This document shows positions 3,461-58,262 of a stretch of 64,000 bases of DNA, piece after piece. The notes under the pieces are model-generated. The model was not told the DNA's origin. It made no database searches and worked only from the letters and a program-made list of their open reading frames with translations. The number at the start of each line of letters is the position of its first letter. Positions within the stretch are counted from its first letter, which is position 1. The translations under genes were made by a program, and so were the position numbers. The DNA comes from a virus, in IMG/VR virus record IMGVR_UViG_3300046519_000190, positions 1-64,000 of that record, one strand, 5' to 3'.

Positions 3461-3628
3461 CTACCAGCTACCCCATTCCGGATTCTGTACCTGTTTCCGT
3501 TTGACCCTATGGTTTTCGAACAGGTGTCTGTGTTCTCTCCAGAATTTGATCCTTCTCAGCCACAGACCTGCTCTGTGCTCCAGCTTTTCGGCATTGGTTT
3601 GCTTTCTGTAGAAATAGGTCTTTCCCAT
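3461..3628 (-). CDS. 55-aa basic protein with C-terminal motif (..PEWGSW); not in ORF track
   Basis: Manual translation MGKTYFYRKQ...QNPEWGSW; ATG abuts the upstream stop. Confidence 0.75.
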   Translation of the reverse strand: MGKTYFYRKQTNAEKLEHRAGLWLRRIKFWREHRHLFENHRVKRKQVQNPEWGSW

Positions 3629-3892
3629 TTACCAGATTCCCCATTTTTCTAACCGGGCTCGTCTTGCCTCTATCTGTTCCTCAGAGATTTTTCTCAGGTA
3701 AGCAGTGATTCCGCCACCGTCTCTCTTTACCGCTTCTTCGAGGATTTCCTCAGACCACTCAAGATTCAGGTACTGGTATCTCCCTTTGATCCCTGCTCTG
3801 TGCATGAGCTGGTTTTCTTGGTGTCTTGTGTAGGCTGATTCCATGTACTCGATGATGTCGGGGATTTCTGTGAGATACGGTAGGTTGGTCAT
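3629..3892 (-). CDS. hypothetical protein with C-terminal motif (..KWGIW)
   Basis: ATGA-coupled ORF. Confidence 0.8.
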   Translation of the reverse strand: MTNLPYLTEIPDIIEYMESAYTRHQENQLMHRAGIKGRYQYLNLEWSEEILEEAVKRDGGGITAYLRKISEEQIEARRARLEKWGIW

Positions 3893-4110
3893 GAGAACTG
3901 ACCATAGGTTTGATTGCCGGTGCGTTCGAATTCACGGGACAGTCTGATCTTGGCGTACCTGGGAAGGTCGCTGTGCCTGATCCGCATTTCTTTCGTGAAG
4001 GCTTTCTGCTGCTTGTCGGTACGACACAGCTTGCACAGGTGATCGTGTGTGGATTTGATGCCTTTCCCACAGGAACATGGGAGTTTTCCGAGTTTGGTTG
4101 CTTTGCTCAT
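3889..4110 (-). CDS. small Cys-motif (CxC..CxxC) protein with C-terminal motif (..YGQFS)
   Basis: ATGA-coupled ORF; CSCG and CKLC. Confidence 0.8.
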   Translation of the reverse strand: MSKATKLGKLPCSCGKGIKSTHDHLCKLCRTDKQQKAFTKEMRIRHSDLPRYAKIRLSREFERTGNQTYGQFS

Positions 4111-4454
4111 GCGAACGTACCGTAATTCTGTGGTTTGGGGGTGGCTTTCTTTTCAGGCTTTGGATACCGGATTTTCTGCTGCTTGGCTTCTTCTCTCTTG
4201 AGCCAGTCTTCTTCTACGTGCATGGTTCGATCTGGAAACACAGCCTCTACGAAACCGGTGCTGTGAGGGTTGTTCTTGATGTGCTTGCGGTAGTGGGTCA
4301 GAGCTGTGCTTGGGAATACCGTTCTGGCAATGAACGTTGCTGGGCCACGACCGTCTTCGCTTGCACCGCCGTAGAGAAGGAACCAGGGTGCGTTTGTGAT
4401 TACCTCACGCTTGACGATGCGGTATTCAGTTTCTGTGGTGGTAATGGGCTTCAT
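4107..4454 (-). CDS. hypothetical protein with C-terminal motif (..PQNYGTFA)
   Basis: ORF in a coupled run. Confidence 0.8.
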   Translation of the reverse strand: MKPITTTETEYRIVKREVITNAPWFLLYGGASEDGRGPATFIARTVFPSTALTHYRKHIKNNPHSTGFVEAVFPDRTMHVEEDWLKREEAKQQKIRYPKPEKKATPKPQNYGTFA

Positions 4455-4562
4455 GCTATGGGCTCTCAGGAAGGTGTGCCTTGGGTGTCTATGTCAAAAC
4501 TCAAACCATCGGGCATCATGCAGAATGGTTTGAGTTTTTACACAGCGGTGCTGGTGCTGCTA

Positions 4563-4871
4563 TCAGTCCCTGAAATCGACAGGGATGAACTTGATCTTTT
4601 CATTGGCTTCTACCGCTACGATTGGGTCTTCCAGATAACCATGACCCTTCGCTTTCAGCTTGATGCTTTCAATGCTGTGGCAGCGAGCTTGGTCATGCCG
4701 GGTTTTGGTGTAAACAGGGTACTCTTTGCCTTGTGCGTAGATGGGTTGAAAACGATCGCCGACTACCAGATTCGAGAACGTCAGGATGGCACGGTTGGTT
4801 TGACCCAGCGGCAGGACGTTTGTGTTTACGGTAGTGACGCGAGCTACATTAGCCATGATTGTGAACCTCAC
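4563..4871 (-). CDS. hypothetical protein
   Basis: ORF downstream of promoter 4959-4990; start uncertain. Confidence 0.7.
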   Translation of the reverse strand: MRFTIMANVARVTTVNTNVLPLGQTNRAILTFSNLVVGDRFQPIYAQGKEYPVYTKTRHDQARCHSIESIKLKAKGHGYLEDPIVAVEANEKIKFIPVDFRD

Positions 4872-4958
4872 TTGAGTTTATGGACTGGGGTACATCTACT
4901 GCTCCCAATGGTCAAACGCTTTGCTTTTATGATCAATGCGTTCTGTTGATTTGATGTA

Positions 4959-5022: not shown

Positions 5023-5547
5023 TTATGCGAAAGACCCGAATCCTCTGTCCTTGTACGCTTGCGGAATCTCGGCAGAAGGCTTGAACTGAGCGGTTTCGAT
5101 GGTGTAGTGATCGAGGGGATTGATGCTGCCCCTTGATACCCAGAAGTCCACGAAGTCGTTGAACAGCCTCCTCATATCGGGATACGTGTCGAACTGCTTT
5201 TCAACCATCCGGGTCGAGCCATATCCCGATGTGTGGACGTCGTACTCGATCAGTCTCCACCGATAGATTTCGTCCCGGTAATTCGGGTCGTAGATGCACT
5301 TCACCACACGATCTAGCTTGGGCAGATAGATGCTGGCCAGAGTCTTGGGTTCTGGTCGACCGTTTGGGTCGCCCTCAGCCATTGCACATGCTGGGAAGCC
5401 ATTCGCCTTGAACCTGATCGAAGGCAGCAAACGTGGGACATCCGGTCTGTCCAGGGTCTTCATGTGACCGTCTAAGTCCCAAGCCAAGTCCCAGCCGGCT
5501 TGCTTCATGAGAGCCTCGTCGAAACGAATGCGGTGCATCTGGCTCAT
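5023..5547 (-). CDS. hypothetical protein with C-terminal motif (..GFGSFA)
   Basis: ATGA-coupled; last gene of its unit. Confidence 0.8.
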   Translation of the reverse strand: MSQMHRIRFDEALMKQAGWDLAWDLDGHMKTLDRPDVPRLLPSIRFKANGFPACAMAEGDPNGRPEPKTLASIYLPKLDRVVKCIYDPNYRDEIYRWRLIEYDVHTSGYGSTRMVEKQFDTYPDMRRLFNDFVDFWVSRGSINPLDHYTIETAQFKPSAEIPQAYKDRGFGSFA

Positions 5548-6612: not shown

Positions 6613-6842
6613 TACAAACCCCCAAAGTGATCGATAGCCTCGTCAACACACGGGCCTTGTAGACGGTGACGACCAACTTCTTTGTTGTCGAAAACGCAGA
6701 CCCACTCCCAGGTTGTGACGTCTTTGCTGTGGAGGTCCAACTTGTTGGGCAGCTTCTCGAAGGTGCAGCCAATCTCTTCGAGAGCCTTTTTGCGTGCGAA
6801 ACCGCTGATTGGCTTCGCAGTCACAGATTTTACAGCGGTCAT
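6612..6842 (-). CDS. hypothetical protein
   Basis: ATGA-coupled ORF. Confidence 0.75.
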   Translation of the reverse strand: MTAVKSVTAKPISGFARKKALEEIGCTFEKLPNKLDLHSKDVTTWEWVCVFDNKEVGRHRLQGPCVDEAIDHFGGL

Positions 6843-7111
6843 GCGTAAATGCCTCCGAACAGGTGAAACACAAGATTTTCGAGCATGAAAGTACCCAGAT
6901 GTGGCGCAGCAGCGACCGGGTGCTTGCTCATGTCGTGGCCAGTGCCAAATACACCGAAAGCTTGGTGACGCTCGGGCTGATCGGTGTCAACACGAACCCA
7001 CATTTGTGGCTGACCACGTTGAACATCGACATGAATGACTTTGGCGCCGGCGGGCAAGCGCACGGTGAAGTCTTCGGTCATCTGAACGGGGTATTTGAAA
7101 ATGGTGATCAT
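6839..7111 (-). CDS. conserved small phage protein
   Basis: IFKYP..LPAGAK..W..GTGH..VFHLF pattern recalled from a widespread phage hypothetical family. Confidence 0.75.
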   Translation of the reverse strand: MITIFKYPVQMTEDFTVRLPAGAKVIHVDVQRGQPQMWVRVDTDQPERHQAFGVFGTGHDMSKHPVAAAPHLGTFMLENLVFHLFGGIYA

Positions 7112-10279: not shown

Positions 10280-10488
10280 TGTGCTGTGTACCCTTCTGGT
10301 CGTGGGATTTTCCAGAACACCTCAGTTGTGAGATTTTCGAGGTCGAAGTCCTGGGCAAGCCCGTTGCGGTAGTAGACAGTCGGGCATTTCTGATCAACCA
10401 GGATTACCTCTGCCGTCTTGTCCGTGTGTGAAACCATCAGATAGAACTGACCGGCTTCGAGTTGATCTTTGGTCAGCTCCTTGCTCAT
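10276..10488 (-). CDS. hypothetical protein
   Basis: ATGA-coupled ORF. Confidence 0.75.
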   Translation of the reverse strand: MSKELTKDQLEAGQFYLMVSHTDKTAEVILVDQKCPTVYYRNGLAQDFDLENLTTEVFWKIPRPEGYTAQ

Positions 10489-10922
10489 GCGAATGCACCA
10501 AAGTCTGCTGGCTTCGGACCCTCTGTCATCGATGGGACAGGTGGATCGTTGCGCATGGCCGTCGCTGCACCGAGTCTCCCACCATCTGGTAGGCTTATCT
10601 CAGCAACAACCGCTGTTGCGTTCTGGAGTGCTTCTGGCAGCTCGGTCATGTCCATTTCAATGGACACTGTGCCGTCCGGGTTTGTCGACTCAATCAGCGT
10701 GACAACGGCTTTAATAGTGTCGTGCTCAAACACCCGACTGACGTTGCCCTTTCTGCCGCTTTTGCTCTTACGCTTCCACAGCTTCTCGTCGACCACATCA
10801 CCCAGATCACCGCCGGTCGTGCTTTCGAACTCCCGTAGATCAGCGCTGCTCACGCCACCCAGCAGGTTGTCCATAAACTGGCAGATCAGCTCTTTGCAGT
10901 CTGCGGTATTCATATCGCTCAT
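10485..10922 (-). CDS. hypothetical protein with C-terminal motif (..PADFGAFA)
   Basis: ATGA-coupled ORF. Confidence 0.8.
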   Translation of the reverse strand: MSDMNTADCKELICQFMDNLLGGVSSADLREFESTTGGDLGDVVDEKLWKRKSKSGRKGNVSRVFEHDTIKAVVTLIESTNPDGTVSIEMDMTELPEALQNATAVVAEISLPDGGRLGAATAMRNDPPVPSMTEGPKPADFGAFA

Positions 10923-11314
10923 TCCCAGGCTCCGTATCCGTCTGGTTTGCTGGCGCGCTCGACTGCACGCGCTTCGTCGTCTCTATGTTGATAGTTTTCG
11001 CGAGGGTGTGCGTGGCGACCAGATGGCTTTATATGCCAGCCAACGTCTGTGATGTTGCCCTGGTAGAAGGTGACACACATAACCCCGCGTCGATGGAACG
11101 TCAGGTCAGTTCGGTCTTTCTGAATCTTGAAGCGCCTGGTGTTCTTGACTCTGACGAACCAGCGATTGAGATAGCCGGTGGCCGGGTTGTCAGTCGCCAC
11201 TTGGAGCCAATGCTCGTCGAGCGTGCCCCAGTCATCGTCGTTCGTGCAAAGGTGGTAGTAAGCCACGATTGCACGTTGCGCCTTAGCTATCAGCTTGCTG
11301 GCGAGAGTGGACAT
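10919..11314 (-). CDS. hypothetical protein with C-terminal motif (..PDGYGAWE)
   Basis: TAATG-coupled ORF. Confidence 0.8.
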   Translation of the reverse strand: MSTLASKLIAKAQRAIVAYYHLCTNDDDWGTLDEHWLQVATDNPATGYLNRWFVRVKNTRRFKIQKDRTDLTFHRRGVMCVTFYQGNITDVGWHIKPSGRHAHPRENYQHRDDEARAVERASKPDGYGAWE

Positions 11315-14963: not shown

Positions 14964-15686
14964 CTCAAGCTCTTCTTGCGCGTTCGACCGATCTTCAACA
15001 AAGGGTTCGACGTTGCGCTTGTACTGGTACTGCTGACCCTCGCTGAGCTTCCACTCAACCTCATGACCGCAGGCGCCATTGCTGCACAGCTTCTTGTCTT
15101 CGCTGTGCATGGGGATCATGTCGCAGCCGCACTTGATGCAGACCTTCGTACCACGATGCCGGAGCAGGAACTTCTCAGCCTCCTTCCATGCCTGGCCATC
15201 GTCCGCTTTGAGCATGTCTTCAAGGCGATCAAGTGCGTCTGTCAGATGCCCCATCGTCACGACATGGGCTTCGCTTGCACGGAACGAACGGTCGTTGGCT
15301 TGCTCAAGGTCTGCACGCAGAGCCATTTCACGGTCAACCGCGTCGTGGACATCTTTGACGGTCTGACAGAAGAGCGGGCTGTCTTTGCTGAGGCGCTGTT
15401 GCTCGGCCGAATACCGGGTGTTGCACATCGCAGCGACACCACAAGCAACCAAACGCTGGCGCTCGATTTCGAGTTCAGCAGCCAGCTTCTTCTCGTTGGC
15501 TTCTGCGGTTTCACACCAGGCCGCAATCGTGGTGACTTTCTTGGTCAGACGCTCGATTTCAGCGGTCTTCTGTTTGTTGGCCTGGTAGATACGATTGAAG
15601 TTCTCAATCGAGGTCTTGGTTGTTTCGTTGGCCATAGCCAACGTATCGCGGAGTTTCTGCATTTCTGTGAATGGCCAAATGTTCAT
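14934..15686 (-). CDS. coiled-coil protein with C-terminal zinc ribbon
   Basis: Heptad-rich N-terminus; CIKCG..CSNGAC. Confidence 0.75.
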   Translation of the reverse strand: MNIWPFTEMQKLRDTLAMANETTKTSIENFNRIYQANKQKTAEIERLTKKVTTIAAWCETAEANEKKLAAELEIERQRLVACGVAAMCNTRYSAEQQRLSKDSPLFCQTVKDVHDAVDREMALRADLEQANDRSFRASEAHVVTMGHLTDALDRLEDMLKADDGQAWKEAEKFLLRHRGTKVCIKCGCDMIPMHSEDKKLCSNGACGHEVEWKLSEGQQYQYKRNVEPFVEDRSNAQEELEPPRANLERL

Positions 15687-15877
15687 GCCCAACCTCCCAT
15701 AAATTTGCGGCTTTCAACTTGGAATTCCACCTGAATGGCTTCTTCCAGTTCCAATTCTTCTGCGATCCGGATTTCTTCGGCTCGCTCGATGTGATCTGCT
15801 CGGACTACCAACAACTGCATCAGTTCCGCAATGCAGATTTCCTTCATCCGGGTTTCGAACTTCAATGGCGCTGCCAT
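15683..15877 (-). CDS. small acidic helical protein with C-terminal motif (..FMGGWA)
   Basis: ORF in operon. Confidence 0.7.
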   Translation of the reverse strand: MAAPLKFETRMKEICIAELMQLLVVRADHIERAEEIRIAEELELEEAIQVEFQVESRKFMGGWA

Positions 15878-17772: not shown

Positions 17773-18171
17773 TTATGCCCAGGTGCCGTATGCTTCTGGG
17801 CGATTTGGTTCTTTCTTGAGTGGTGAAGGCATGAGCCGATCACCATTTCTCAACGCTGTCTGTATGGCCGCAAGGATCGTATCCGGTCCCCATTTGGTAT
17901 CCTGGAACGCCCTGATTCTGTCCGTGATCGTTATTGGGTCGTAGCCCTGCTCATGAAGCAGGTCGAAGATTTTCATCCACTTGACGGCTTCTTTTTCAGC
18001 CTCTTCTGCTTCACCTTCTTCGCGAGCCTTTCTGTCGGCCATTTGAGCCTCCCAGGCTGCGATCTTTGCAGCTTGGGCTTCCTCAGAAGCCTTCATCTGC
18101 TTTTCGCGTTCGGCTACAAGCCTGGCCAACTGCTCTTCAAGCTCTTCGGGGTCTGTGCTGGTGGCTTTCAT
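17773..18171 (-). CDS. charged helical protein with C-terminal motif (..PEAYGTWA)
   Basis: ATGA-coupled ORF. Confidence 0.8.
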   Translation of the reverse strand: MKATSTDPEELEEQLARLVAEREKQMKASEEAQAAKIAAWEAQMADRKAREEGEAEEAEKEAVKWMKIFDLLHEQGYDPITITDRIRAFQDTKWGPDTILAAIQTALRNGDRLMPSPLKKEPNRPEAYGTWA

Positions 18172-18422
18172 GCCCAGTTCCCCATGCCCATCGATTCGAG
18201 CCGCTCCTGGCGCTCTTCCTCTTCGAACTGCTTGGCGATCGCATCCAGTTCAGCCTGCTCGATTCGGCGGCGAACGACTTTGATCTGGTCAGCCTCATCT
18301 TTCACAGCCATCTGAATATGCAGGTTGATCCGGCGCTGCATGTCAGCCTTCTGAGCCTGAATCTCATCCAGCTCTTCGTCTGTCAGGTCGACTGACAGAC
18401 GACGGTAGTTAGCATTGGTCAT
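18168..18422 (-). CDS. charged helical protein with C-terminal motif (..GMGNWA)
   Basis: Start trimmed to the ATGA overlap. Confidence 0.8.
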   Translation of the reverse strand: MTNANYRRLSVDLTDEELDEIQAQKADMQRRINLHIQMAVKDEADQIKVVRRRIEQAELDAIAKQFEEEERQERLESMGMGNWA

Positions 18423-18700
18423 GCCCAACCCCCAAAGTCTTCTGGACGCACCGGGTTGTCGCGCTGCTCTTGGAGTCGAACGCGGTTGTCTTCGTGAATA
18501 TTCAGAGCCTCAAACCCTGTCATCCCTTCTGGGAGACATTTCAAGCAGAGTCGACCTTCATCCAGATCGAACAGCTTGGCTTTGCTGCTGAGCACACCAC
18601 ACTTGACGCAAGCAGTGGTGAACTGGCTCATGACGCTTGCAGCTTTCGCCTTCTGTTCCTGAATCTTCTTCTGGAAGTTGATATCGCGGTTCTTCCTCAT
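18419..18700 (-). CDS. zinc-finger protein (CxxC..CxxC) with C-terminal motif (..PEDFGGWA)
   Basis: AGGAG RBS; CVKC and CLKC. Confidence 0.8.
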   Translation of the reverse strand: MRKNRDINFQKKIQEQKAKAASVMSQFTTACVKCGVLSSKAKLFDLDEGRLCLKCLPEGMTGFEALNIHEDNRVRLQEQRDNPVRPEDFGGWA

Positions 18701-19525: not shown

Positions 19526-19686
19526 ACAGACTCAACCCATTTGGTGAGCTGCACATCCAGACCTGCCAGGTCGACGAATTCATCCGGGTCGGCATCTTCA
19601 ACCATTTCGCTGACGCCATCCTGAAAGCCCATCATGTAGGCTGTCTTCAACATTTCTGCCAGTTTGGCTTCGGTTAGCTGTTTCAT
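19522..19686 (-). CDS. 54-aa hypothetical protein; not in ORF track
   Basis: Manual translation MKQLTEAKLAECLK...; ATGA-coupled. Confidence 0.65.
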   Translation of the reverse strand: MKQLTEAKLAEMLKTAYMMGFQDGVSEMVEDADPDEFVDLAGLDVQLTKWVESV

Positions 19687-19895
19687 GCCCAGGGACTCTC
19701 TTGAAGTTTTGGTTCCGGGTTGTATAGGGCTTTGACGTGAACACGACCGCCGATGTAGTGCCAGTCATGCAGAAAGCCAGTTTCTTGGGTCAGACGGATG
19801 CACATCGCTTCCGCTTCTGCTTTTGGCATGTCGAACAGACCAACACTCTCGCCGTTCTTGTACACCTCGTCGTTGCAGCTTTCAGTGTTTGCCAT
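19683..19895 (-). CDS. hypothetical protein
   Basis: GGAG RBS. Confidence 0.75.
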   Translation of the reverse strand: MANTESCNDEVYKNGESVGLFDMPKAEAEAMCIRLTQETGFLHDWHYIGGRVHVKALYNPEPKLQESPWA

Positions 19896-20887: not shown

Positions 20888-21487
20888 TCAATCAGCCGGA
20901 ACAGTAACCAAAGGATCGGTGATGATCAGACGACGGCCATCGGTCATGTAGTTGGCTGGGTTGCAGAGGTCATGCAGAAGGTCCAGTTGGCTCGTCTTCA
21001 TGAAGTCCGCGATCCACGTTAAAGCTTTGGAGATTGACTGGCTGAACAGGTTCGACAGAGCCAGCTCTTGAATAGCTCCAGCGTATCGTTCCTGTGCAGG
21101 GATGATCCCCTCGAAACGGTCACTCTCCAGCATACGATGCCGGATTGTCGCAATGATCGAATCGCGCTCGTAATAGAGTGGACGATGATCACACGGGTGA
21201 ATCTCTTGCAGGCGTTTCAGCTCGATCAGGTGAACCCCATCCGGGTGTTCAGACGACTTCATTTGTCCGTGATACTCGACAAACTCCACGATCCCATCAC
21301 AGCCTTTTACCCGACCACCGAGAAGCCAGGTTACAGTGGTCGTATCAACGGTCAGCTTGAGCACGGTATTCGGACAGCAGCCTTCGAACACAACGGAAAA
21401 TTCACCACGCCCCAGCTCTTTCTTGCCTTTTAAAACGGGGAACTGCGCCAGATAATCTGGCGCGTCCTCTAATTCGAAGTGACTCAA
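20888..21487 (-). CDS. Ser/Thr protein kinase-like protein (T7 gp0.7 type)
   Basis: LGRGEFSVVF glycine loop, VLKL lysine, HDLCNPANYM catalytic loop, IITDP. Confidence 0.65.
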   Translation of the reverse strand: MSHFELEDAPDYLAQFPVLKGKKELGRGEFSVVFEGCCPNTVLKLTVDTTTVTWLLGGRVKGCDGIVEFVEYHGQMKSSEHPDGVHLIELKRLQEIHPCDHRPLYYERDSIIATIRHRMLESDRFEGIIPAQERYAGAIQELALSNLFSQSISKALTWIADFMKTSQLDLLHDLCNPANYMTDGRRLIITDPLVTVPAD

Positions 21488-21993
21488 GACCAGCCCCCAA
21501 CAGCTACACCCTTTTCGGCTGCGGCTGCGATCTGCTCTTCGTCCATGATGATTGAACTGCCTTTGACGACAGGTGCCAACTCGTTGTCGGCTTCGATGAA
21601 GGTTGTCTCGCCGTCTTCGTCGATGTCCATAGTGCTGTTGGTGTAGCGCAGCAGCATGTCCTCATACGCAGACTCGGCCGCAGACTTCGTGCGGAAGGTT
21701 TCGGTTGCAGCCGGGTCGAGCACCCAACCTTTGTCTTCCATCTTCTCCTCGTCCCACTCGGACGATTTGACGATGACGCGGTTGTACACCTGGATGCCGT
21801 GACTATGACGGTACTCAGCAGGCAAGCTCTTGTTGTAGCGGCCGATCCAGTGCAAGCGAACCCACAACTTGCCGTTGCGGTACTCTTTCAGCGTGAACGC
21901 CGGCGTGTCTTTCTTTTCAGCCCAGGCTTTGGAGGTCAAGCCGGAACCATCGATGTCCTGATACAGATCGGCCATGTCAGTTGCTCTTATCAC
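21484..21993 (-). CDS. hypothetical protein with C-terminal motif (..AVGGWS)
   Basis: ORF in operon; start may be the Met at 21975. Confidence 0.75.
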   Translation of the reverse strand: MIRATDMADLYQDIDGSGLTSKAWAEKKDTPAFTLKEYRNGKLWVRLHWIGRYNKSLPAEYRHSHGIQVYNRVIVKSSEWDEEKMEDKGWVLDPAATETFRTKSAAESAYEDMLLRYTNSTMDIDEDGETTFIEADNELAPVVKGSSIIMDEEQIAAAAEKGVAVGGWS

Positions 21994-23973: not shown

Positions 23974-24222
23974 TCACTTTGAAATCTCCGGTGTGATCAA
24001 AGGCCACCAGCCAACGACATCGCCTTTGCCGTTGGTGAATGTGTCGTAGGTCCAGTTCCAACCAGCGAAGAACCATTCGTCTTCGCCGTTGTTGTCGAAG
24101 TTGTTGAACCCCATAGTCACGCAGAGGCCGTTGCCGTCTTCAATGCCGTGTTCCTCGAAGCGCACCAAAAGCAGGACCATAGTCGAGTCTTTGGGTGCGC
24201 TCAGAGTAGACAGCCACTTCAC
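23974..24222 (-). CDS. DUF551-like small phage protein
   Basis: W...SAPKD.T.VLL ... VVGWWPL. Confidence 0.65.
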   Translation of the reverse strand: MKWLSTLSAPKDSTMVLLLVRFEEHGIEDGNGLCVTMGFNNFDNNGEDEWFFAGWNWTYDTFTNGKGDVVGWWPLITPEISK

Positions 24223-38080: not shown

Positions 38081-38775
38081 TATGCCCACCCACCAAAGTC
38101 TGTCTGCCCGTATTGCTTCGCTCGCTCAGCCATCATTTCGTCTTTGTAGGCTTGCGGTCGCAGAATAGAGCCAAGTCTTGTGAATGCAGCCCGGACATCA
38201 GCGTCGTCCATCGCCTTGCTCTCAAGCTTGGTGATGTACGCTGCGATTTCAGGGCTTACAGTGTTCAGGTACTCACGGGTGTAGCCGATCGTACCGGTAT
38301 TCATGCTGTGTAGCTTGGTTGAGCCCAGCGCTGCGACTCTGAACAGGTACACACGCTCATCGCCAACAACGTGGGCACACATCGGCACCCAGACCAGCTC
38401 ACAGCCTTTCCCGATGATCGGAGCGTTGGTGTTTGGACCGCCACCCTCGTACATCGCCGCGATCTGCTGTTTCATCTGCACCGGGTTCATACCCAGGTGA
38501 CGCACAGTCTGGAACAGGCTGTTCATCTTCCGGCACAGCCAGTCTTCTGCATCTGCATAGACTTGGAGAACGTCGTCGTTGATGACCACATTGTCTTCGC
38601 TGACTTCACGCAGGGCTTTGATGATCGCCGCCCCTTTGATAGTCACCGCGCGAATGGACACCTCTTTACCAAGCTCCATTCTGCGGATGTAGTCTTTAGA
38701 GAGTGCCCACTCTCTGCGGCGAAAAGTCTCGCCGCAAAGATCGGGATCAGTCTCTAATCCTTTGATTAGAGGCAT
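38080..38775 (-). CDS. hypothetical protein with C-terminal motif (..TDFGGWA)
   Basis: Start trimmed to MPLIKG after a GAGGA RBS. Confidence 0.8.
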   Translation of the reverse strand: MPLIKGLETDPDLCGETFRRREWALSKDYIRRMELGKEVSIRAVTIKGAAIIKALREVSEDNVVINDDVLQVYADAEDWLCRKMNSLFQTVRHLGMNPVQMKQQIAAMYEGGGPNTNAPIIGKGCELVWVPMCAHVVGDERVYLFRVAALGSTKLHSMNTGTIGYTREYLNTVSPEIAAYITKLESKAMDDADVRAAFTRLGSILRPQAYKDEMMAERAKQYGQTDFGGWA

Positions 38776-44526: not shown

Positions 44527-45369
44527 TTAACCCAGCAGCTCGTCCAGCTCGTCGAGGTCCGACAGATCGTCGGCAGCGGTGCTGCCACCTACAGAGCCTT
44601 TCGCAGTCGGACTGACCGTTTCGAACTCTGCATCATCGGCATCCGCGGACAGATCCGCCAATGCAGGATGGCTACCACGTTTTGCAGGGGAACCCGAGTT
44701 GCTCGGCAGGATGCCCACGATTGCGCCGACAGAGGTCAGAGCTTTCGTTTCACCAGCCGGGTTCTCTTGAGCTACGAACTCGTCGAGGTTCGGGAGGTTG
44801 GTCAGGAACTTCGCAGGAACTGGTTTCGACTTCGCAGCCGGCATGACAGTGTACTTGGTGTCCAGACCGGAGCCGGTACGGGTGATCTTGAGGTCTGTAC
44901 CTTCGTTGAGGTCGGTGATATCACCGTACTCGCCGATGAGGCCGCAGATTGCTTCGAACACGCCCTGGCCGACTTCCATGATCTGCACTTTTTCTGGCTC
45001 TGGGCCGGTCAGGTGCAGAACGTTCAGCAGGTAGCGCTGAGCGGACAATGCTTCTTTCAGCATCTTGGTCTGATCGTCCGAAGTCGATACAGCCATCAGC
45101 TTTTTGGCTGCTTCGCAGACTTCGCAAGGCTTGCCGAAAGTCTTGTCGCTGCATACGTACACCGCAGCAGGCTTACCAGCGCTTTCAGGGGTCTTGATGA
45201 AGTGCATGGCAAAGTCATGCCAGAATTGCTTCTCGTCACCACCACGCCAGCTTGGCAGCACGCGGTAGGTGTGAGTACCAGGTTGCGGCTTGAGAGTGTT
45301 CTGGCGCGATTTCTTCGCGGCCATGTCTTTCTGTTTGCCAGCAATCAGGTCTTGAATCGAAGTGCCCAT
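44527..45369 (-). CDS. gp32-like single-stranded DNA-binding protein
   Basis: R.LP..., H..., C...CEVC zinc site, DITD..EG.D..ITR.G.GL.T.Y, acidic tail DLDELDELLG. Confidence 0.75.
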   Translation of the reverse strand: MGTSIQDLIAGKQKDMAAKKSRQNTLKPQPGTHTYRVLPSWRGGDEKQFWHDFAMHFIKTPESAGKPAAVYVCSDKTFGKPCEVCEAAKKLMAVSTSDDQTKMLKEALSAQRYLLNVLHLTGPEPEKVQIMEVGQGVFEAICGLIGEYGDITDLNEGTDLKITRTGSGLDTKYTVMPAAKSKPVPAKFLTNLPNLDEFVAQENPAGETKALTSVGAIVGILPSNSGSPAKRGSHPALADLSADADDAEFETVSPTAKGSVGGSTAADDLSDLDELDELLG

Positions 45370-45553: not shown

Positions 45554-46183
45554 TCAGTCGCTCGAAGAGCTGCACGAACCGGAGTCGGAGCTGCTCGAAG
45601 AGGACGAAGAGCTGCACGACGAAGAGCCGCTGCTATCACCCCAAGAGCCGCTTGCACCACCGCCACCGAAGCTACCACCGCCACCGTGATGCGACGAATT
45701 GTGGCTAGAGCTACGAACAGGCTCATCGTCTGCGCTGCTGTTGAAGGCATACAGATCACGCTGCCGGCGTTGCTCTTCCTGGGTGTCATTGTCACGACGG
45801 CGTGCATCATCCGCTTCACGACGCTGGCGATCGTAGTAGGCATCGTCGCGCTCACGCTTGGTCTTGTCCTGACGATCATTGACCCGGGTTGGGCGAGGGT
45901 CGATTTTCGGGATAGGGTAGTTGGACTGCCCTTCCCGAGTAGAGCCCATGCGAACTACGCCAATTGGCTTGCGTGCGATGTCTTGCGGGCCTGCATCGAG
46001 TCGTGATTCGCGTATCGCCTTGTACAGATCACCACCTGGACGAAGACGGTCGGCTTCACGACGCTCATTTGCGCGGCGTTCTTGTGCTGCGATTTGACGA
46101 CGGCGCTTACGGTTCAAATAAACCGTGACGCCGGCTGCAACTACGAGGGAGGTCGTAGCGCAGCCTGCAATCAGTAAATCCAT
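45554..46183 (-). CDS. membrane-anchored protein with Gly/Ser-rich tail
   Basis: N-terminal TM; GGGGSFGGGGASGSW plus Ser-rich C-terminus. Confidence 0.75.
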   Translation of the reverse strand: MDLLIAGCATTSLVVAAGVTVYLNRKRRRQIAAQERRANERREADRLRPGGDLYKAIRESRLDAGPQDIARKPIGVVRMGSTREGQSNYPIPKIDPRPTRVNDRQDKTKRERDDAYYDRQRREADDARRRDNDTQEEQRRQRDLYAFNSSADDEPVRSSSHNSSHHGGGGSFGGGGASGSWGDSSGSSSCSSSSSSSSSDSGSCSSSSD

Positions 46184-46198: not shown

Positions 46199-46279
46199 TT
46201 AGAAATCGCCGTAGCCTGTACCTGGACCATCATCGCCAGGCTTTGGGGCATCTTCATTATCGGGTTCGTCTTGGATCAT
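46199..46279 (-). CDS. 26-aa acidic peptide ending ..TGYGDF; not in ORF track
   Basis: Manual translation MIQDEPDNEDAPKPGDDGPGTGYGDF; fills the intergenic gap; GGAG upstream. Confidence 0.5.
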   Translation of the reverse strand: MIQDEPDNEDAPKPGDDGPGTGYGDF

Positions 46280-47584
46280 TTACATATTCTCCACAGCACG
46301 TTGACCCGGGTGTTCCTTCATACGAAGTTCACCCTGCTTTTCCAGTCGCAGGTCTGCACCCACTTGGATCAGCATGTCTTTACGATGACGGAAGCTGTCC
46401 GCCGCAGATGAAACCATCGATGCGATCGCTCGTGCCTCGTGAGCGCGTTCCTGAGCAGCTTGATAACCGCTGTCCTGGATGACCATCGCGTCGATGGATT
46501 TTTCGGTGAACTTCGTGCCGGCCATGACCATCGAATCGCGGAACTTCTGGTTCAGTTGCGCTTCCAGGAGTTCGACTTGCTGCTTCGCACGGTCAGACTG
46601 ATACGTAGCGTCTGCCGACAGTCGTGCGTAGTGGGCAAACAGCGCCGCTTGGCGAGTCATGCCGTCGTTGATGGTGGCTTCGGTGAAGTGCAGGTCTTTT
46701 TGAAGCTGGTCAGCGTCGATGAACGTGTTCAAGCCACCAACTTTCTTGGTCGGGGTCACAGACACCGGCTTCGATGGCGAGCTGACTGCCGCTTTCGGGG
46801 CAGGTGCTGCCGATGGTACTGACGCGAGCAATGCGTCCAGCTCGTCTTCGGTCGGTTCATCGCTGCCGCTCGCTTCTGCGTCTGCGAAAGCCTTTTCGAC
46901 TTTCTGGTTGCGCTCAGAAGCTTTAGCCGTCAGATCATCAACGACATAAGTGCCGTCAGCCTGCATGCCTGGTTTCAGCCTGGTTTCAGCCTCTACCGTG
47001 ATCGTCTCTTCGGCTTTAGGCTCGGTGAGTGCTTTCGCTTTCTTGAACGCCGCGCGCAGGTCTTTCTCGATCTGACCGATTTCGGAGTTCGCGTCAATCT
47101 TGGCGAGAACAGGCTCGGTGATTGCAGAGTGATCGGCATCAGGGTCCAGGCCAAATTCACCCGGCAGGCTCACCAACAGATCGATCACTTGCTCGGCCAG
47201 AGCAAGCTCTTTAGCCTGAGTGGCGTCTGGCGTTCCAACCATACCCAGCATCTTGGCTTGCTCAACGTCACCGCCGGCTGCTTCAAGCAATGCTGCGTCC
47301 AGTTGCTCCTGGGTGATTTCGGTTTCGAGGTCAGCAAGTGACGCCAGGTCATCGTCTTCGGCCGAAGGGGCGGGTTCAGCAGGCTTCGCAGCTACTGCTC
47401 TTGGACGAGTCTTGCGAGGTGGTTTCGGCAGCTCTTCAACGATTTCAGCATCGGTCACGTCGCTGTCGGTAACTGGATGCTTAGCCGTTGGGGCGTCAAG
47501 CTCGTCCAGTTGGCTGAGTTCGTCATCGTCAAGACCTGCAAGCAATGCTTCCAGTTCGTCGATGTCGTTCACTTCTTTGGTCAT
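46280..47584 (-). CDS. long acidic disordered protein with C-terminal UvsY-like domain
   Basis: C-terminal helical DL..., KFTEKSID..., Y..A, F..R..ML pattern; lies between SSB/recA and dnaE. Confidence 0.6.
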   Translation of the reverse strand: MTKEVNDIDELEALLAGLDDDELSQLDELDAPTAKHPVTDSDVTDAEIVEELPKPPRKTRPRAVAAKPAEPAPSAEDDDLASLADLETEITQEQLDAALLEAAGGDVEQAKMLGMVGTPDATQAKELALAEQVIDLLVSLPGEFGLDPDADHSAITEPVLAKIDANSEIGQIEKDLRAAFKKAKALTEPKAEETITVEAETRLKPGMQADGTYVVDDLTAKASERNQKVEKAFADAEASGSDEPTEDELDALLASVPSAAPAPKAAVSSPSKPVSVTPTKKVGGLNTFIDADQLQKDLHFTEATINDGMTRQAALFAHYARLSADATYQSDRAKQQVELLEAQLNQKFRDSMVMAGTKFTEKSIDAMVIQDSGYQAAQERAHEARAIASMVSSAADSFRHRKDMLIQVGADLRLEKQGELRMKEHPGQRAVENM

Positions 47585-51663: not shown

Positions 51664-52893
51664 TTACGCGAGGATACGTTTCGCGACACCCAGCGCAGCT
51701 TCTTTTTCTGCTTCTGGCAGACGGTTGCAGTAGGCATACATCGCGCCTTCTACGAAGTCCGCTTTCATCATGCCGATGCGAGCGATGTTGATGGCAACGC
51801 GAGGCCCGATGGTCAGCGAAACGATGTTCGGGAACGACTTGTGACGGATTTCGTCAGCGAACTGGCGAATACGTTTGGCGTCAGCTTCTGACAGGCCAGT
51901 CGCAGCGGCGATCATCGCGATTTCTTGCTTCTCTGGTGGGTAGTCCACCATCGCTACAACACCGAAACGCTCGATGGTCGCGGCGTCTTGGGTGATGGTT
52001 GCTTGGTACAGGCCGGATTGGTCGCCAGTACCGTTCGTGTTGCCCGTTGCTGCGAATGCGAACAGAGGGTGAGGCTTGATCACACGCAGATGTGGCGGGG
52101 CGTTTTTGATGATCAGCGGCTCGCCTTCGAGGATCGCTTGGTACGCAGACAGAACGGTTGGGCTTGAACGGTCGATTTCGTCAGCCAGGTAGGTCCAGCC
52201 GTTCTGCATGGCAGTAGGCAGTGGACCCAGCTCGAACTCAGTGACCGATACAGCAGAGCCATCCGGGTTGATGTGAGGCTTGACGACCCACTGGCCGACG
52301 ATGTGCGACTCTTCGGTGTCGACAGTGTGCTGGAAGCGGAACAGACGACGATTCAAACCGGCGCACATTTGCTTGAAGATCGAGGACTTACCAACGCCAG
52401 AGTGGCCGTACAGGAAGATCGGGGTACGCAGTTCGAGCGCCATCATCACGGTCTTGGTCAGATCGGGGTTCAGGATGTAGTTGTCGTTCCAGGCTGGGAC
52501 CATGTGCTCGTCAGTACCGCCGCGACGGGCGTCAGCAGTGCAAGGGATGCCGGTGCCAGCTTTGGTGTACGCAGACTTGGTGCTCTTCGGGAAGCGGAAG
52601 ACTTCGTGGAAGAAGACCTTCTCGACATCAGGATCGGCCGATGCAGCGGGTTTCGCGCCAGCACCAGGGTTGGCGGCGGCAACTTTAGCCTCTTCGGCTT
52701 CGCGCTTCGCTTTCATTTCGGCCATTTTCAGCTTGGCCGTTTCAGACAGCAGCTCTGCGTCTGGGAATTTGGCACGATAAGTTTCGAGGTCCATCGAAAC
52801 GGCCGAGTCCTCGCTGTGCGCAGTCTTGAGGTGGTTTGCAATGCTGTGTACTTCTTCGCCGCATACTTCGCACTTGATTTTATCGTTGCTCAC
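51664..52893 (-). CDS. CobS/MoxR-like AAA+ ATPase with N-terminal C2H2 zinc finger
   Basis: CEVC..HLKTAH; GHSGVGKS, LADEIDR, ATGNT.G.GD, D.A..ERF. Confidence 0.88.
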   Translation of the reverse strand: MSNDKIKCEVCGEEVHSIANHLKTAHSEDSAVSMDLETYRAKFPDAELLSETAKLKMAEMKAKREAEEAKVAAANPGAGAKPAASADPDVEKVFFHEVFRFPKSTKSAYTKAGTGIPCTADARRGGTDEHMVPAWNDNYILNPDLTKTVMMALELRTPIFLYGHSGVGKSSIFKQMCAGLNRRLFRFQHTVDTEESHIVGQWVVKPHINPDGSAVSVTEFELGPLPTAMQNGWTYLADEIDRSSPTVLSAYQAILEGEPLIIKNAPPHLRVIKPHPLFAFAATGNTNGTGDQSGLYQATITQDAATIERFGVVAMVDYPPEKQEIAMIAAATGLSEADAKRIRQFADEIRHKSFPNIVSLTIGPRVAINIARIGMMKADFVEGAMYAYCNRLPEAEKEAALGVAKRILA

Positions 52894-52980: not shown

Positions 52981-52983
52981 GGT

Positions 52984-55068
52984 TTAGCTGGCAAGCAGCG
53001 CGTCCCGGAGTTGCTTGAGGACGATGCCTGGCAGCTCTTCGACGTTATCCAGCTTGACGTTCTTGCGGTAGAAGTTCTGCACGGCGTTGGACATGATGCC
53101 GACACCGACGATGTTCGTACCGTCTTTCTCGATGCGCTTGACCACTGCTTTCAAGTGGGCGTTCAGCTTGGCACCAGGCACACCACCAGCAGGTTGACCA
53201 TCGCTGAACACGATCATCATCTTGCCTTTCTTCTTGCCCCGATTGGCATGTCGGCACAGGGACTCGTAGGCATACTGCACAGACTCGCCGTCGATGTTCG
53301 AAGCCATCGATGACTGGACGTGAGCGTAGCTCGCCATGCGCTTCTTGACTTCGATGGAGAACTTCTCTTTGAAGGTCTTGAACATCGGCAGTCGAAGTGG
53401 CTCACAGCGATCCCAGGACCGGCCGCTGTTGTGCTCTTCGCACATTTCTTTGTACAGGTCTTTCGACCGCTGAGCGTACAAGTCGCCAGTCGTGAAGCCC
53501 ATGATTTCGCAATCGACACCCAGACGACCCAGGACGTCTGCAAGCACCCACGCAGAACACATGGCTGTATGAATCTTGGCACCGCCCATCGAACCAGAGC
53601 AGTCGATCACCAGCGACACGGCTACTTCCCGGGTCTTGTGCTCGATCTTGTTCTTGTAGATGTGGTCGTCGCCGGCAGTCAGACGATACAGGTTGTTCGA
53701 CGACAGCTTGCCTTTACGCAGACCCTGTTGAGTCAGCGACTTGTTCCGGGCTGCGAACGCTCGTTCGAGGTTGCGAGACACTGGGCCGACCATGCCCATG
53801 ATGGCTTTTTCCATGTCTTCGAGCCATTTCGGGCTGTAAGATGATGGCACTTTGGGCGCTTCGAGCTGATCCCATTCGCGAGTGAAGACGGTGTAGTCTT
53901 CCTCTTCCATTTCTGTCGAACACAGATCGGTGACGTACTGGCCAAACTCAGTGCCGATATCCTGGGTTTTGTTCCAGTCGAAGTCCTTGAGGTAGTTGGC
54001 GCCACCGTATTCAGCTTGTGCGGACTCGGTGTCTTCTTGAGGGCCTTTGTTCTCTTGCTGGCTGCTGATGCCGTCACCGCCGTCGCTAGCTTCTTCCTCA
54101 CGACGCTCACCATCATTGCTGCCTTCGCCCTCATCTTCCTCGTCGGCATCGTCTTCGCCGTCTTCCTCTTCGCCGGCCCCATCTTCGGCTTCTTCATCTT
54201 CGGGAAGTTCTTCTTTGTCGCCTTTGCCGCCAGAACCTCCTTCTTCCTCTTCACCCTCTTCGTCGAGGGCACCGCCACCAGCGCCTTTGTTACCCTTCGG
54301 TGGCTTGCTGCCCTTTTTGCCACCACCTTTACCGCCCATGCCGCCCGCACCACTGCCACCACCCTTGCCCGATTTGCTCGGGTCTTCATCACCGAATGGG
54401 TTGTTGCCGTCGCCTTCTGGGGGTTCACCCATGACCACGTTGCGAATCTGCTTCGCCATGTCGTAGCAGTCAGACGCTTTGGTCATCGTCTTCATCTTGG
54501 AAGCGATTGGGTCAAGCTGCTTCTGAATGCCGGCGATCAGGGACCACTTGTCGCTCATGTAGTCCTGGAAGAACTTCTGACCACCCCAAGCACGCAATGC
54601 GGGGATCGCGAGGACTTGGAACAGCTCTTGCTCTTCGGCGCCGTTTGCGAGGGCTTCTTTCAGCTTCGGCGTGATGAACTTGTCCACGAACGTTTGGTGC
54701 ATGTTCGCGAGGTTGTGGCGAGAACCCTGGAAGTTCTTGACCATTTCCTTCTCGCAGAAGAAGGATTCGAGCGGGTTATACAGACCGCTCATATTCTCGT
54801 GAGTCGCACGCAGGTTCGATTTGCCGTCTGCGTACAGGACTTTGGAGATTTCGCTGTCGAGGAAGCCTTGAATCGCGTCGATCAGCTCTTCGCTGGCGTC
54901 GTCCGGGATCATCGGCAAGTTGACGCGCGTTGCCTTCATGGTACGTTCGTCATACTTCACGAACGCCTTTACACCCGATTGGGTGACGAGAACTTTGCCG
55001 TCAGAGAGGATTTGCGCAATCTTGGTGATTGCTTCCCTCATGATAACGACGCGTTGAGTGCGATCCAT
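52984..55068 (-). CDS. CobT-like vWA-domain protein
   Basis: MIDAS DCSGSM, NIDGES, VFSDGQP; acidic linker; adjacent to the CobS-like ATPase. Confidence 0.88.
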   Translation of the reverse strand: MDRTQRVVIMREAITKIAQILSDGKVLVTQSGVKAFVKYDERTMKATRVNLPMIPDDASEELIDAIQGFLDSEISKVLYADGKSNLRATHENMSGLYNPLESFFCEKEMVKNFQGSRHNLANMHQTFVDKFITPKLKEALANGAEEQELFQVLAIPALRAWGGQKFFQDYMSDKWSLIAGIQKQLDPIASKMKTMTKASDCYDMAKQIRNVVMGEPPEGDGNNPFGDEDPSKSGKGGGSGAGGMGGKGGGKKGSKPPKGNKGAGGGALDEEGEEEEGGSGGKGDKEELPEDEEAEDGAGEEEDGEDDADEEDEGEGSNDGERREEEASDGGDGISSQQENKGPQEDTESAQAEYGGANYLKDFDWNKTQDIGTEFGQYVTDLCSTEMEEEDYTVFTREWDQLEAPKVPSSYSPKWLEDMEKAIMGMVGPVSRNLERAFAARNKSLTQQGLRKGKLSSNNLYRLTAGDDHIYKNKIEHKTREVAVSLVIDCSGSMGGAKIHTAMCSAWVLADVLGRLGVDCEIMGFTTGDLYAQRSKDLYKEMCEEHNSGRSWDRCEPLRLPMFKTFKEKFSIEVKKRMASYAHVQSSMASNIDGESVQYAYESLCRHANRGKKKGKMMIVFSDGQPAGGVPGAKLNAHLKAVVKRIEKDGTNIVGVGIMSNAVQNFYRKNVKLDNVEELPGIVLKQLRDALLAS

Positions 55069-56735: not shown

Positions 56736-57412
56736 TGCTTAGCCTTCTCTGCTGCCCGGCGCTTGATGAAGTCCGCAGTGGACTCACCTGGCAATGGGCG
56801 AAGTGGATTGATGGTTGGGACAGGTGCTTCTGGTTCTTTCCAGGTGGGCGGCGGTGCAGCTTTCTTCACTGCCGGGACACTTTTCTCCGCGCTCTCTTTC
56901 ATGAGGACGTTGACGACATCGGCCATGCCCGCTTCGACAAAGCCTGATTTCGGTTTGGGCGCTGGACGAGGTGCAGGTGGAATACGCTTCTTGGTTTCAC
57001 GCACTTCACCTGGTCCACCACCGATCGCCCAACCGCGTGCATAGCTTGGGTTGGTCATATCGTACTTGCCGCTGCTGACTGCGCCGGCCGACTTGTTGTC
57101 TTTCTCGACAGCGACCGGGTCGGTGATGTGACGTGGGCGAGGCTTGAAGTACAGCGCGTGACCTGCTGCAACCTCTTGTGCTTTGTGCTTCTTCGCAATG
57201 CAGTTGTTATGGCAGTAGGCTCGCTGGCACTCGACTGCGATACCAGACGGCAGATCGTTGTTCTCGATGCGGCGGATGGTGTGCAGGCAGACGGCATAGC
57301 TCGCATGCTGCCCACGCTCTTCACAGAAGTTATAAACCGAATTGCGGCCGGACATGCTCGCTTCGACCGGAAGTAGAACTGCTAACTCCGGGTCTTCTTT
57401 TACTTCGGACAT
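56732..57412 (-). CDS. hypothetical Cys-containing protein with Pro-rich C-terminus
   Basis: Start trimmed to MSEVK after promoter 57444-57474. Confidence 0.75.
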   Translation of the reverse strand: MSEVKEDPELAVLLPVEASMSGRNSVYNFCEERGQHASYAVCLHTIRRIENNDLPSGIAVECQRAYCHNNCIAKKHKAQEVAAGHALYFKPRPRHITDPVAVEKDNKSAGAVSSGKYDMTNPSYARGWAIGGGPGEVRETKKRIPPAPRPAPKPKSGFVEAGMADVVNVLMKESAEKSVPAVKKAAPPPTWKEPEAPVPTINPLRPLPGESTADFIKRRAAEKAKQ

Positions 57413-57443
57413 GGGAATGCTCTCGTTTGATTTGCACGCTTGC

Positions 57444-57474
57444 AGTGTACAAGCGCGCTTTAGGGGATGTGCGG
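57444..57474 (-). promoter_or_regulatory. CC-N8-CC-N13 promoter-like element
   Basis: -10 TACACT flanked by CGCTTG/CAAGCG. Confidence 0.75.
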
Positions 57475-57482
57475 GCTTGCTG

Positions 57483-58262
57483 TCAGCCGAAAGCGCCCCA
57501 GCCGCTGCCGTAGACCTCTTCACGGTCGATCTTCGGTTCTGGTTCGCGAACACCATGCGGGACACTTGCAACGTCTATAAACGTGCCGTCAACCGAGTGC
57601 ATAATGCCTTCGACCACATCGGCGGTTTGCGGACTCGCGGTTTCACTGCGAGCTTGAGCGAGCAAGGCGCCTACACTGTGACCCTTGCCGTTGATGTTGC
57701 TCAAGAAGTTGCTTGTCGGCAGAAGGTTAGCAAGAGCTTTGCCCATGATGCGGCCGATCTTGTCATGACCACCCTCAACTCCATATGTCCCGGCCTGTAT
57801 GTCTGTCATAGCAAGAATGGGCAGAGCTGCGTTTTTCGTACCTTTTGAAAGTTCGACAACGAACTCATGACCAACTTGGAGAGGCACTTCACGGCCAATG
57901 TAGTTCTCAACCGTGTAGCCTTTCGAGACTGCTTTGGACTTGACAACCGAGTACCACTCTCTTTCGCTGACGCGCTTGCATTGCGCCTGGCCTTTTACCT
58001 GATCATCTTTGCCCCACCAGGTAAGGGAGAAGCCGTCAACACCAGTAGGCGTTGTCGCGATGAACATCGATCGCCACAGCTTTCCTTCCGGGTGGCGGCA
58101 CTCGATCATCGAAGCTGGGTAGGCTGAGCTTGAGCAATCGATCAGAGAGTGGACGGTTGGGTATTCATCTGGGCCGGTGTGATGTCCAGAAAGTTGCCAT
58201 CTGACTGTCTCTGAAATCAGCTTGATTCCACAATCTGCTGGGCTGTAAGGGGTGATAAGCAT
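57483..58262 (-). CDS. protein with WGR-like segment and C-terminal motif (..GWGAFG)
   Basis: WWGK..GQ..K..SK...KGY resembles a WGR domain; start uncertain. Confidence 0.7.
   Translation of the reverse strand: MLITPYSPADCGIKLISETVRWQLSGHHTGPDEYPTVHSLIDCSSSAYPASMIECRHPEGKLWRSMFIATTPTGVDGFSLTWWGKDDQVKGQAQCKRVSEREWYSVVKSKAVSKGYTVENYIGREVPLQVGHEFVVELSKGTKNAALPILAMTDIQAGTYGVEGGHDKIGRIMGKALANLLPTSNFLSNINGKGHSVGALLAQARSETASPQTADVVEGIMHSVDGTFIDVASVPHGVREPEPKIDREEVYGSGWGAFG

Follow-up and report, generated by a model that had tools for sequence, protein, structure and literature searches.

A shared aromatic C-terminal tail on unrelated proteins of a Nickievirus-like Pseudomonas phage is a candidate docking motif for a common receptor

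The 64,000 nucleotides of DNA analyzed here (bases 1 to 64000 of IMG/VR record IMGVR_UViG_3300046519_000190, hereafter the window) belong to the 110,851-bp genome of a Nickievirus-like Pseudomonas phage, and many of the proteins encoded there end in the same short C-terminal motif, hydrophobic-G-x-[F/W]-(A/S). The window is ∼84% identical in DNA to the Pseudomonas syringae phages nickie, ZY21, phiK7B1, and Nican01 (genus Nickievirus) and 76% identical to hairong, of the same genus. Genes were called with a codon-usage gene caller, which gave a set of 177 proteins for the genome, and nearly all of the genes lie on the minus strand. Pfam and the GenBank records of the relatives identified replication genes (a DnaE-type polymerase fused to a UDG-superfamily domain, a DnaQ-like exonuclease, DnaB, DnaG, and an ATP-dependent ligase), together with a gp32-type single-stranded DNA-binding protein (SSB), RecA, SbcCD-like proteins, RuvC, ribonucleotide reductase, and thymidylate enzymes. 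An Hfq-like protein and a CobS/CobT-like pair, composed of an AAA+ ATPase and a protein with a von Willebrand factor A (vWA) domain, are also encoded.

We termed "carrier" any open reading frame (ORF) ending in hydrophobic-G-x-[F/W]-(A/S)-stop and found 16 carriers in the window, all on the minus strand, and one outside it, at positions 105303 to 105620 of the genome. The carrier at 3461 to 3628 (55 amino acids [aa]) ends in PEWGSW, without the extra last residue, and its tail is kept in the nickie and hairong orthologs at 33 to 40% overall identity. It is followed by the carrier at 3629 to 3892 (87 aa, EKWGIW), whose hairong ortholog keeps the tail and whose nickie ortholog is gp027, by the one at 3889 to 4110 (73 aa, QTYGQFS), which has a weak coding score, and by the one at 4107 to 4454 (115 aa, PQNYGTFA), for which there is no ortholog in nickie or hairong. 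The protein encoded at 5023 to 5547 (174 aa) ends in RGFGSFA and has no overlapping downstream start. Two further carriers are found at 10485 to 10922 (145 aa, PADFGAFA), with a tail that hairong keeps at ∼26% overall identity, and at 10919 to 11314 (131 aa, PDGYGAWE), and another at 15683 to 15877 (64 aa, KFMGGWA). Three more lie at 17773 to 18171 (132 aa, PEAYGTWA; no overlapping downstream start), 18168 to 18422 (84 aa, MGMGNWA), and 18419 to 18700 (93 aa, PEDFGGWA), the last of which has the canonical tail [KR]-P-x-x-aromatic-G-x-W-A. The carrier at 21484 to 21975 (163 aa, VAVGGWS) belongs to phrog_5241, to which no function is assigned, and the one at 24219 to 24635 (138 aa) ends in RGAGAFA. 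At 37229 to 38080, between the gene for an SbcC-like ATPase and the HNH/RuvC genes, lies a carrier of 283 aa ending in YEIGGWA. The remaining two, which we call the core carriers, are located directly downstream of the SbcCD-like genes (38080 to 38775, 231 aa, TDFGGWA) and between the primase and ligase genes (57483 to 58262, 259 aa, SGWGAFG); the latter has a possible WGR-like domain. An earlier reading of the window, made from the sequence only, had listed 16 strong minus-strand ORFs by their stop-side coordinates and last residues, and all 16 are present and end as it gave them.

The pattern G.[FW].?$ was found in 17 of the 177 called proteins, versus 1.4 expected from its internal frequency (Poisson P = 3e-13), so that about one-tenth of the phage proteins carry the tail. 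With the strict pattern [FYWMLIV]G.[FW].?$, we observed 15 proteins versus 0.45 expected. The enrichment is also present in nickie (15/167), in hairong (16/174), and in the Rhizobium phage B1VFA (9/161, P = 1e-5), and it does not hold in the Salmonella phage SSU5 (2/132); the excess that the sequence-only reading had noted in the window was thus recovered in all of these genomes except SSU5.

Codon reading bore out the claim that all four Gly codons (GGT, GGA, GGG, and GGC), both Trp and Phe, and all three stop codons occur in the tails, and the aromatic residue preceding the Gly is encoded by TGG, TAT, TAC, TTC, or TTT. The next start is overlapped by 4 or 1 nucleotides (nt) in 11 of the 17 carriers. 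The other six have no overlapping downstream start, in line with the "several" noted before, and 44 noncarrier genes have the same -4/-1 overlap without the motif. The last Ala or Ser codon often gives the A of the next gene's ATG (GCATGA, TCATGA), and part of the preference for Ala or Ser as the last residue therefore comes from this overlap. Of the codons for the last five residues, compared between aligned orthologs, 60 are unchanged, 30 differ synonymously, and 30 differ nonsynonymously. The tail is real, strongly nonrandom, and selected at the protein level, not at the DNA level.

We aligned 57 tails from four genomes, anchored on the Gly (position 0). The profile consists of K/R at -5 (25/57), Pro at -4 (18/57), an aromatic residue or Met at -1, Gly at 0, a small or polar residue at +1, and W or F at +2 (57/57, by construction of the search pattern), followed by Ala, Ser, or the C terminus. 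This corresponds to the consensus [K/R]-P-x-x-aromatic-G-x-[W/F]-(A/S)-COOH, and in the two core carriers, which are conserved members of the replication module, the tail extends upstream to (D/E)-R-x3-Y. The 20-residue stretch that precedes the tail is enriched 1.3- to 2.4-fold in E, P, R, Q, and K, as expected from the earlier description of a free C-terminal motif behind a charged or Pro-rich linker.

The bodies of the carriers are mutually unrelated (best E = 0.029 in an all-against-all BLASTP with the tails removed), Pfam recognized no family in any carrier, PHROGs gave no family with known function, and none of the Pfam-identified enzymes of the phage bears the tail; on both counts, unrelated bodies and tail-free enzymes, the sequence-only reading was right. 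AlphaFold2 models were obtained for the core carriers. The WGR-like carrier at 57483 to 58262 was modeled with a mean predicted local distance difference test (pLDDT) score of 89.9 and secondary structure through residue 226, followed by residues 228 to 237 at pLDDT below 50 and by the tail at pLDDT 60 to 70, which includes a short helix. The carrier at 38080 to 38775 gave a model with a mean pLDDT of 84.9, in which no helix extends beyond residue 223 and pLDDT falls to 45 to 58 over the last ∼10 residues. Both proteins are thus predicted to consist of a folded domain, a low-confidence stretch, and the tail. Foldseek gave no match at E ≤ 0.001 for either model and, for the model of 38080 to 38775, none in the PDB. 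With VIA-align, residues 45 to 145 of the WGR-like carrier matched 2ra8_A (Z 7.2; 62 residues, 1.8 Å) and the PARP1 WGR domain 2cr9 (Z 5.6) weakly, both below the trust level of Z 8, and W83, G84, and K85, which form a W-G-[RK] signature, are invariant in a 22-sequence alignment. The WGR-like domain mentioned in the sequence-only reading is plausible on these grounds, not proven.

Comparison of orthologs showed that the tail is more conserved than the rest of the proteins. Reciprocal-best orthologs in nickie and hairong retain it even at 26 to 40% protein identity, and across 26 ortholog pairs, identity is 71% in the last five residues, versus 50% in the body and 48% in the linker, so that the tail is indeed kept better than the linker. 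The families of the core carriers extend much further. For the carrier at 57483 to 58262, all 63 sequences examined (22 close homologs and 41 cluster representatives with less than 50% mutual identity) end in W-G-x-F-[GAC], preceded by a conserved (D)-R-x3-Y, and a 38-sequence alignment of this family has only nine invariant columns, four of which are in the tail. A search for related loci with the closer alignment of this family gave only four near relatives, and three of the family's distant members, searched singly in IMG/VR, gave no matches. For the carrier at 38080 to 38775, all 50 database homologs, down to 44% identity, end in F-G-x-W-[AST] after E-R-x3-Y.

The form of the tail differs between lineages. 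In B1VFA, which shares the replication module, [F/Y]-G-x-F forms the very end of eight or nine proteins, in many cases with N-P before it; among them are those of the genes at the same two module positions and two genes translationally coupled to dnaE. In SSU5, both syntenic carriers, including the gene at the position of 38080 to 38775, end in W-A-T-W. Trp is found in 30 of 48 Nickievirus tails and the extra last residue in 44 of 48, versus 0 of 8 for both in B1VFA, but these Nickievirus counts include orthologs from three close genomes, so the lineage statistics are not independent. Tails that are uniform within a genome and different between lineages are what a common, co-evolving receptor predicts.

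Since the tail is kept as a protein feature across several phage genera, its most likely role is that of an address label recognized by a single partner. We propose that it is a portable C-terminal docking motif for one common receptor, and we assign a probability of about 0.6 to this reading, in which the receptor is left open and CobS/CobT is preferred. The tail would be a short linear motif at the end of a flexible linker, charged and rich in Pro, that follows unrelated small domains; it would tether the carriers to a single receptor that co-evolved with the tails within the Nickievirus/B1VFA/SSU5 group of DnaE-encoding siphophages. The adaptor family suggested by the sequence-only reading is borne out as far as the portable docking pattern goes, and its common partner is putative.

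Tentatively, and with a slight preference, we consider the orphan CobS/CobT-like motor of the MoxR AAA+/vWA type as this receptor. The putative receptor itself would be the CobT-like vWA protein (52984 to 55068, minus strand; Pfam CobT_C/VWA, residues 471 to 689), with the CobS-like MoxR AAA+ ATPase (51664 to 52893, minus strand; Pfam AAA_5) as its presumed motor partner. The free aromatic C terminus would dock on the vWA domain of CobT, at its MIDAS (for metal ion-dependent adhesion site), which would make the carriers clients or adaptors of CobS/CobT. Among 65 CobT homologs, the MIDAS residues D489, S491, and D623 never vary, and S493 and T526 are conserved in at least 90%. CobT homologs are present in SSU5 and B1VFA and CobS homologs in SSU5, B1VFA, and IncC plasmids; CobS/CobT with an intact MIDAS was found in all three tail-using lineages. 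The annotations of the window phage and its relatives contain no CobN-like client, and the motor is therefore considered an orphan; no HExxH protease motif was seen in the CobT translation. CobS and CobT are among the proteins of the window phage for which BLASTP found counterparts in both SSU5 and B1VFA, as are DnaE, the DnaQ-like protein, SSB, RecA, SbcCD, the 5′-3′ exonuclease, RuvC, ligase, DnaG, DnaB, ParB-like proteins, and a DEAD-type helicase; roughly 55 of its proteins have a counterpart in SSU5 or B1VFA. Prediction of a complex of full-length CobT (65-row alignment) and Mg with the C-terminal 60 residues of the WGR-like carrier (22-row alignment) gave a score of 0.00 in each of two runs, which argues neither for nor against binding. 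As a separate observation, CobT itself contains N-P-[F/Y]-G-D at residues 222 to 227, at the start of an acidic/Gly-rich linker; it is conserved in the Nickievirus-like CobT group, absent from more distant homologs, and resembles the first half of the tail.

The Hfq-like ring, which had also been named as a candidate partner, and the HslV-like protein have no BLASTP counterpart in the tail-using phages B1VFA and SSU5 and are consequently poor candidates for a shared receptor; we rejected both. The HslV-like ORF of the window phage has no Pfam match.

Two known systems bear on the CobS/CobT proposal. In eukaryotic end joining, unrelated repair proteins are brought to a single hub by Ku-binding and XLF-like motifs, which are short terminal peptides with a basic patch, in many cases a Pro, and a Trp or Phe that is conserved. 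The motif of the APLF type occupies a hydrophobic pocket in a vWA domain, and those of the XLF-like type are located at C termini (PMC4831024). The phage tail, a basic patch followed by a conserved aromatic residue at the protein terminus, resembles these motifs in pattern only. The two are not homologous, an invariant Gly and two aromatic residues set the phage motif apart, and in the phage, a Ku-like (Gam-like) protein is a carrier instead of the hub. That vWA pockets bind short terminal motifs in the Ku system counts, by analogy, for the vWA domain of CobT as a candidate receptor. The second system is the hde operon of IncC plasmids and SXT/R391 elements, which encodes the CobS-like ATPase vcrx089, vcrx090, ssb, bet, and exo; the ATPase and the first tail-bearing protein together counter type I restriction, and the paper does not mention the tails (PMC7498323). 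In IncC, an element unrelated to the phage, the genes for a CobS-like ATPase and a vWA protein flank those for four unrelated proteins, each of which ends in an acidic, double-aromatic tail. As in the phage, unrelated proteins thus share an aromatic C-terminal tail in a genome encoding a CobS-like ATPase and a vWA protein, but the carriers are four in one operon versus ∼17 across the phage genome. No such motor is seen in the Red region of phage PA28, and the lambda-type Bet of this phage has neither the C-terminal extension nor the tail of the IncC Bet. We also observed that the IncC CobS-like ATPase ends in V-F-G-D-Q-W-R and the PA28 lambda-type exonuclease in the near-identical V-F-G-E-Q-W-R, a likeness that may be due to chance or to a shared Bet-binding end.

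Several points weigh against the docking reading or its preferred receptor. The IncC tail is a different motif, with acidic residues followed by two adjacent aromatics in place of aromatic-G-x-aromatic, and the hde operon is consequently an analogy of organization. CobT-like genes are found in two phages without the shared tail, Vibrio phage ICP2 (no pattern matches by eye) and Gordonia phage Kvothe (two matches by eye among 62 proteins, covering half of the genome). The motor alone does not imply a tail system, and "CobT implies tails" is unsupported as a general rule in these two phages; for CobS/CobT as one of the partners named by the sequence-only reading, the presence in all three tail-using lineages with an intact MIDAS therefore stands beside its presence in phages that lack the tail. 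The carriers are scattered over 55 kb instead of being grouped near cobS/cobT, and a replisome or repair hub would account no less well for the location of the two most conserved ones, within the modules for repair and replication. The tail may have been lost in one case: the carrier at 3889 to 4110 has a single candidate ortholog (hairong, 23% identity), a doubtful one, and it lacks the tail. To these is added the nonindependence of the Nickievirus tail counts. CobS/CobT is a candidate receptor.

The same docking logic could serve a replication or repair hub, such as the phage DnaE-UDG polymerase, the gp32-type SSB, DnaB, RecA, or the host beta clamp, to which the tail would recruit accessory factors on replicating or broken phage DNA, as T7 and T4 tails do. 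We regard such a hub as possible, and about as likely as CobS/CobT. It would suit the neighborhoods of the two deeply conserved carriers (one lies between primase and ligase, the other directly follows SbcCD), the weak matches of one of them to a WGR-like fold of the DNA-break-sensor type, the annotation of another carrier as Gam-like in the GenBank records of relatives, and the translational coupling of two B1VFA carriers to dnaE; furthermore, the phage has a DnaE and no annotated clamp. Yet neither the Gln nor the Leu of the clamp motif QL(S/D)LF is present in the tail, and the DnaE of the phage (47657 to 51049), in which a C-terminal UDG-superfamily domain (PF03167, residues 978 to 1111) replaces the usual C-terminal domains, has its own canonical-looking Q-x-E-L-L at the site of the internal clamp-binding motif of E. 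coli DnaE. Most carriers are tiny ORFans outside the replication module, and the phage SSB has a tail of a different, acidic-helical kind.

Readings without a docking hub are less probable. A C-terminal degron, which would give early proteins a short programmed half-life via host Lon, ClpXP/ClpAP, HslUV, or FtsH or via the phage HslV-like protein, would fit a free, exposed aromatic C terminus behind a disordered linker, the many small ORFans of the type that phages switch off later, and the HslV-family annotation of a nickie protein in GenBank. We consider it unlikely, since the tail is unlike the L-A-A end of ssrA-type degrons, the HslV-like protein has neither Pfam support here nor a counterpart in B1VFA or SSU5, the tail is also carried by replication and repair proteins retained across genera, and its lineage-specific forms argue for a co-evolving phage receptor and not for a conserved host protease. 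Encapsulin cargo peptides and the T4 capsid targeting sequence are analogues of a loading signal, and by that analogy alone, the tail could direct carriers into the capsid or virion for injection into the next host, which would suit a Gam-like end protector. The location of all carriers in the nonstructural part of the genome, the presence of replication-module proteins of 231 to 283 aa among them, and the lack of any visible relation of carriers to a structural protein or scaffold make this improbable. Finally, the motif could be a nucleotide-level by-product of Shine-Dalgarno sequences, of ATGA overlaps with the next gene, or of a copied DNA cassette, an idea to which the 11 overlapping carriers and the Ala/Ser codons shared with the next ATG lend some appeal. 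Against it stand the freely varying codons for Gly, for the aromatic residue, and at -1, the six carriers without overlap, the 44 overlapping genes without a motif, the persistence of the motif in B1VFA without the last residue, and the pileup of synonymous changes within conserved tails. We find it scarcely credible, and we rejected the Shine-Dalgarno and start-overlap explanation on the codon variety, the nonoverlapping carriers, and the tail-less overlapping genes.

The docking reading joins a logic that is known from other systems. The C-terminal tip of bacterial SSB, D-D-D-I-P-F, is one tail for many receptors. It shares with the phage motif an aromatic residue beside a free carboxylate as a hub code in DNA metabolism, but the topology is reversed, as in the SSB system one tail serves many receptors. 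An acidic run with a terminal Pro-Phe-COOH of the SSB type was not found in the phage tails, which mostly have K/R and Pro at -5/-4 and always Gly at 0. Phage T7 gp2.5 and gp4 share a flexible, aromatic-tipped C-terminal tail that docks on one partner. Both tails are acidic and end in Phe (PMC10359462, PMC12339929). Here too, different phage proteins share a flexible C-terminal tail with an aromatic tip, but T7 has two such proteins with strongly acidic tails, whereas here ∼17 proteins have a K/R-Pro pair and an invariant Gly before the tip. The bacterial beta-clamp-binding motif, with the consensus QL(S/D)LF (PMC9690074), and the tails that bind T4 gp45 are likewise short, often C-terminal hydrophobic peptides that bring many unrelated DNA-metabolism proteins to one hub. 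The 57 tails offer two positions for the clamp Gln; it appears twice at one of them and is missing from the residues listed for the other, and in place of the clamp Leu/Met directly before the terminal Phe, the tails have A, G, S, T, K, H, or R. The penultimate Tyr of the proteasome-activator motifs HbYX and GQYL, C-terminal tails that dock on a ring of the 20S type, is absent as well, the phage tails having W or F as the penultimate residue or, in some of them, the aromatic residue last. Literature searches returned no description of the tail motif, consistent with the earlier statement that none was known.

Tail-to-hub logic is thus known from the SSB, clamp, T7, and Ku systems, and what is new is the presence of one motif on ∼10% of a phage proteome, across genera. 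If one receptor reads the tail, ∼17 uncharacterized proteins per genome would become a single testable network, which would span phages of Pseudomonas, Rhizobium, and enterobacteria as well as phage-plasmids, could give roles to many ORFans, and would possibly explain why such elements carry CobS/CobT-like motors. A phage-wide address-label system, in which about one-tenth of the proteome (early ORFans and repair accessory proteins) would be wired by the tail to the CobS/CobT motor, is a speculative version that we put forward with reserve; if it holds, the long-puzzling "cobalt chelatase" genes of phages, phage-plasmids, and IncC/SXT elements would gain a set of clients and a recognition code. 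More generally, wiring by short linear motifs in the eukaryotic style can span one-tenth of a phage proteome, and the motif is a simple sequence marker to find more members.

Some proteins of the genome come close to the tail or have other terminal features. The minus-strand ORF at 19683 to 19895 (70 aa) ends in x-x-W-A without the Gly, and its nickie and hairong orthologs likewise end in W-A; we regard it as a possible degenerate carrier and left it out of the statistics. The weaker candidate of the sequence-only reading, TGYGDF at 46199, does correspond to a 26-codon minus-strand ORF (46199 to 46279) ending in Y-G-D-F, and it is unconfirmed, as a search for an equivalent ending in the motif in nickie and hairong found none. 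It is in frame with 45554 to 46183, with one stop codon between; the latter encodes a protein of 209 aa, with a hydrophobic helix at the N terminus and, at the C terminus, a Gly/Ser-rich stretch of low complexity in which F and W occur. A DUF7352 protein (E = 4e-23; 6839 to 7111) ends in F-G-G-I-Y-A, with identical last residues in hairong, and was considered a near miss and not counted. Outside the window, at positions 106808 to 108369 of the genome, three neighboring proteins start with [D/E]-I-W-G-A-[S/T]-[D/E] followed by a linker. This N-terminal tag is conserved in two genes of nickie and three of hairong, B1VFA and SSU5 lack it, and it may be a relative of the C-terminal tail or reflect simple paralogy.

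The Hfq-like protein (PF17209, E = 1.9e-9) is encoded at 63051 to 63296, just downstream of the DnaB gene. At its C terminus, the gp32-type SSB has an acidic amphipathic tail of the D-E-L-D-E-L-L type, and the SSB C termini of SSU5 and B1VFA are of the same acidic-helical type. A 434-aa phrog_1069 protein has acidic E-L-D-E-L repeats like those of the SSB tail at its N terminus (44527 to 45369 and 46280 to 47584 cover SSB and the phrog_1069 protein). The SSB tail and these repeats look like a second, separate tail code in the same phage.

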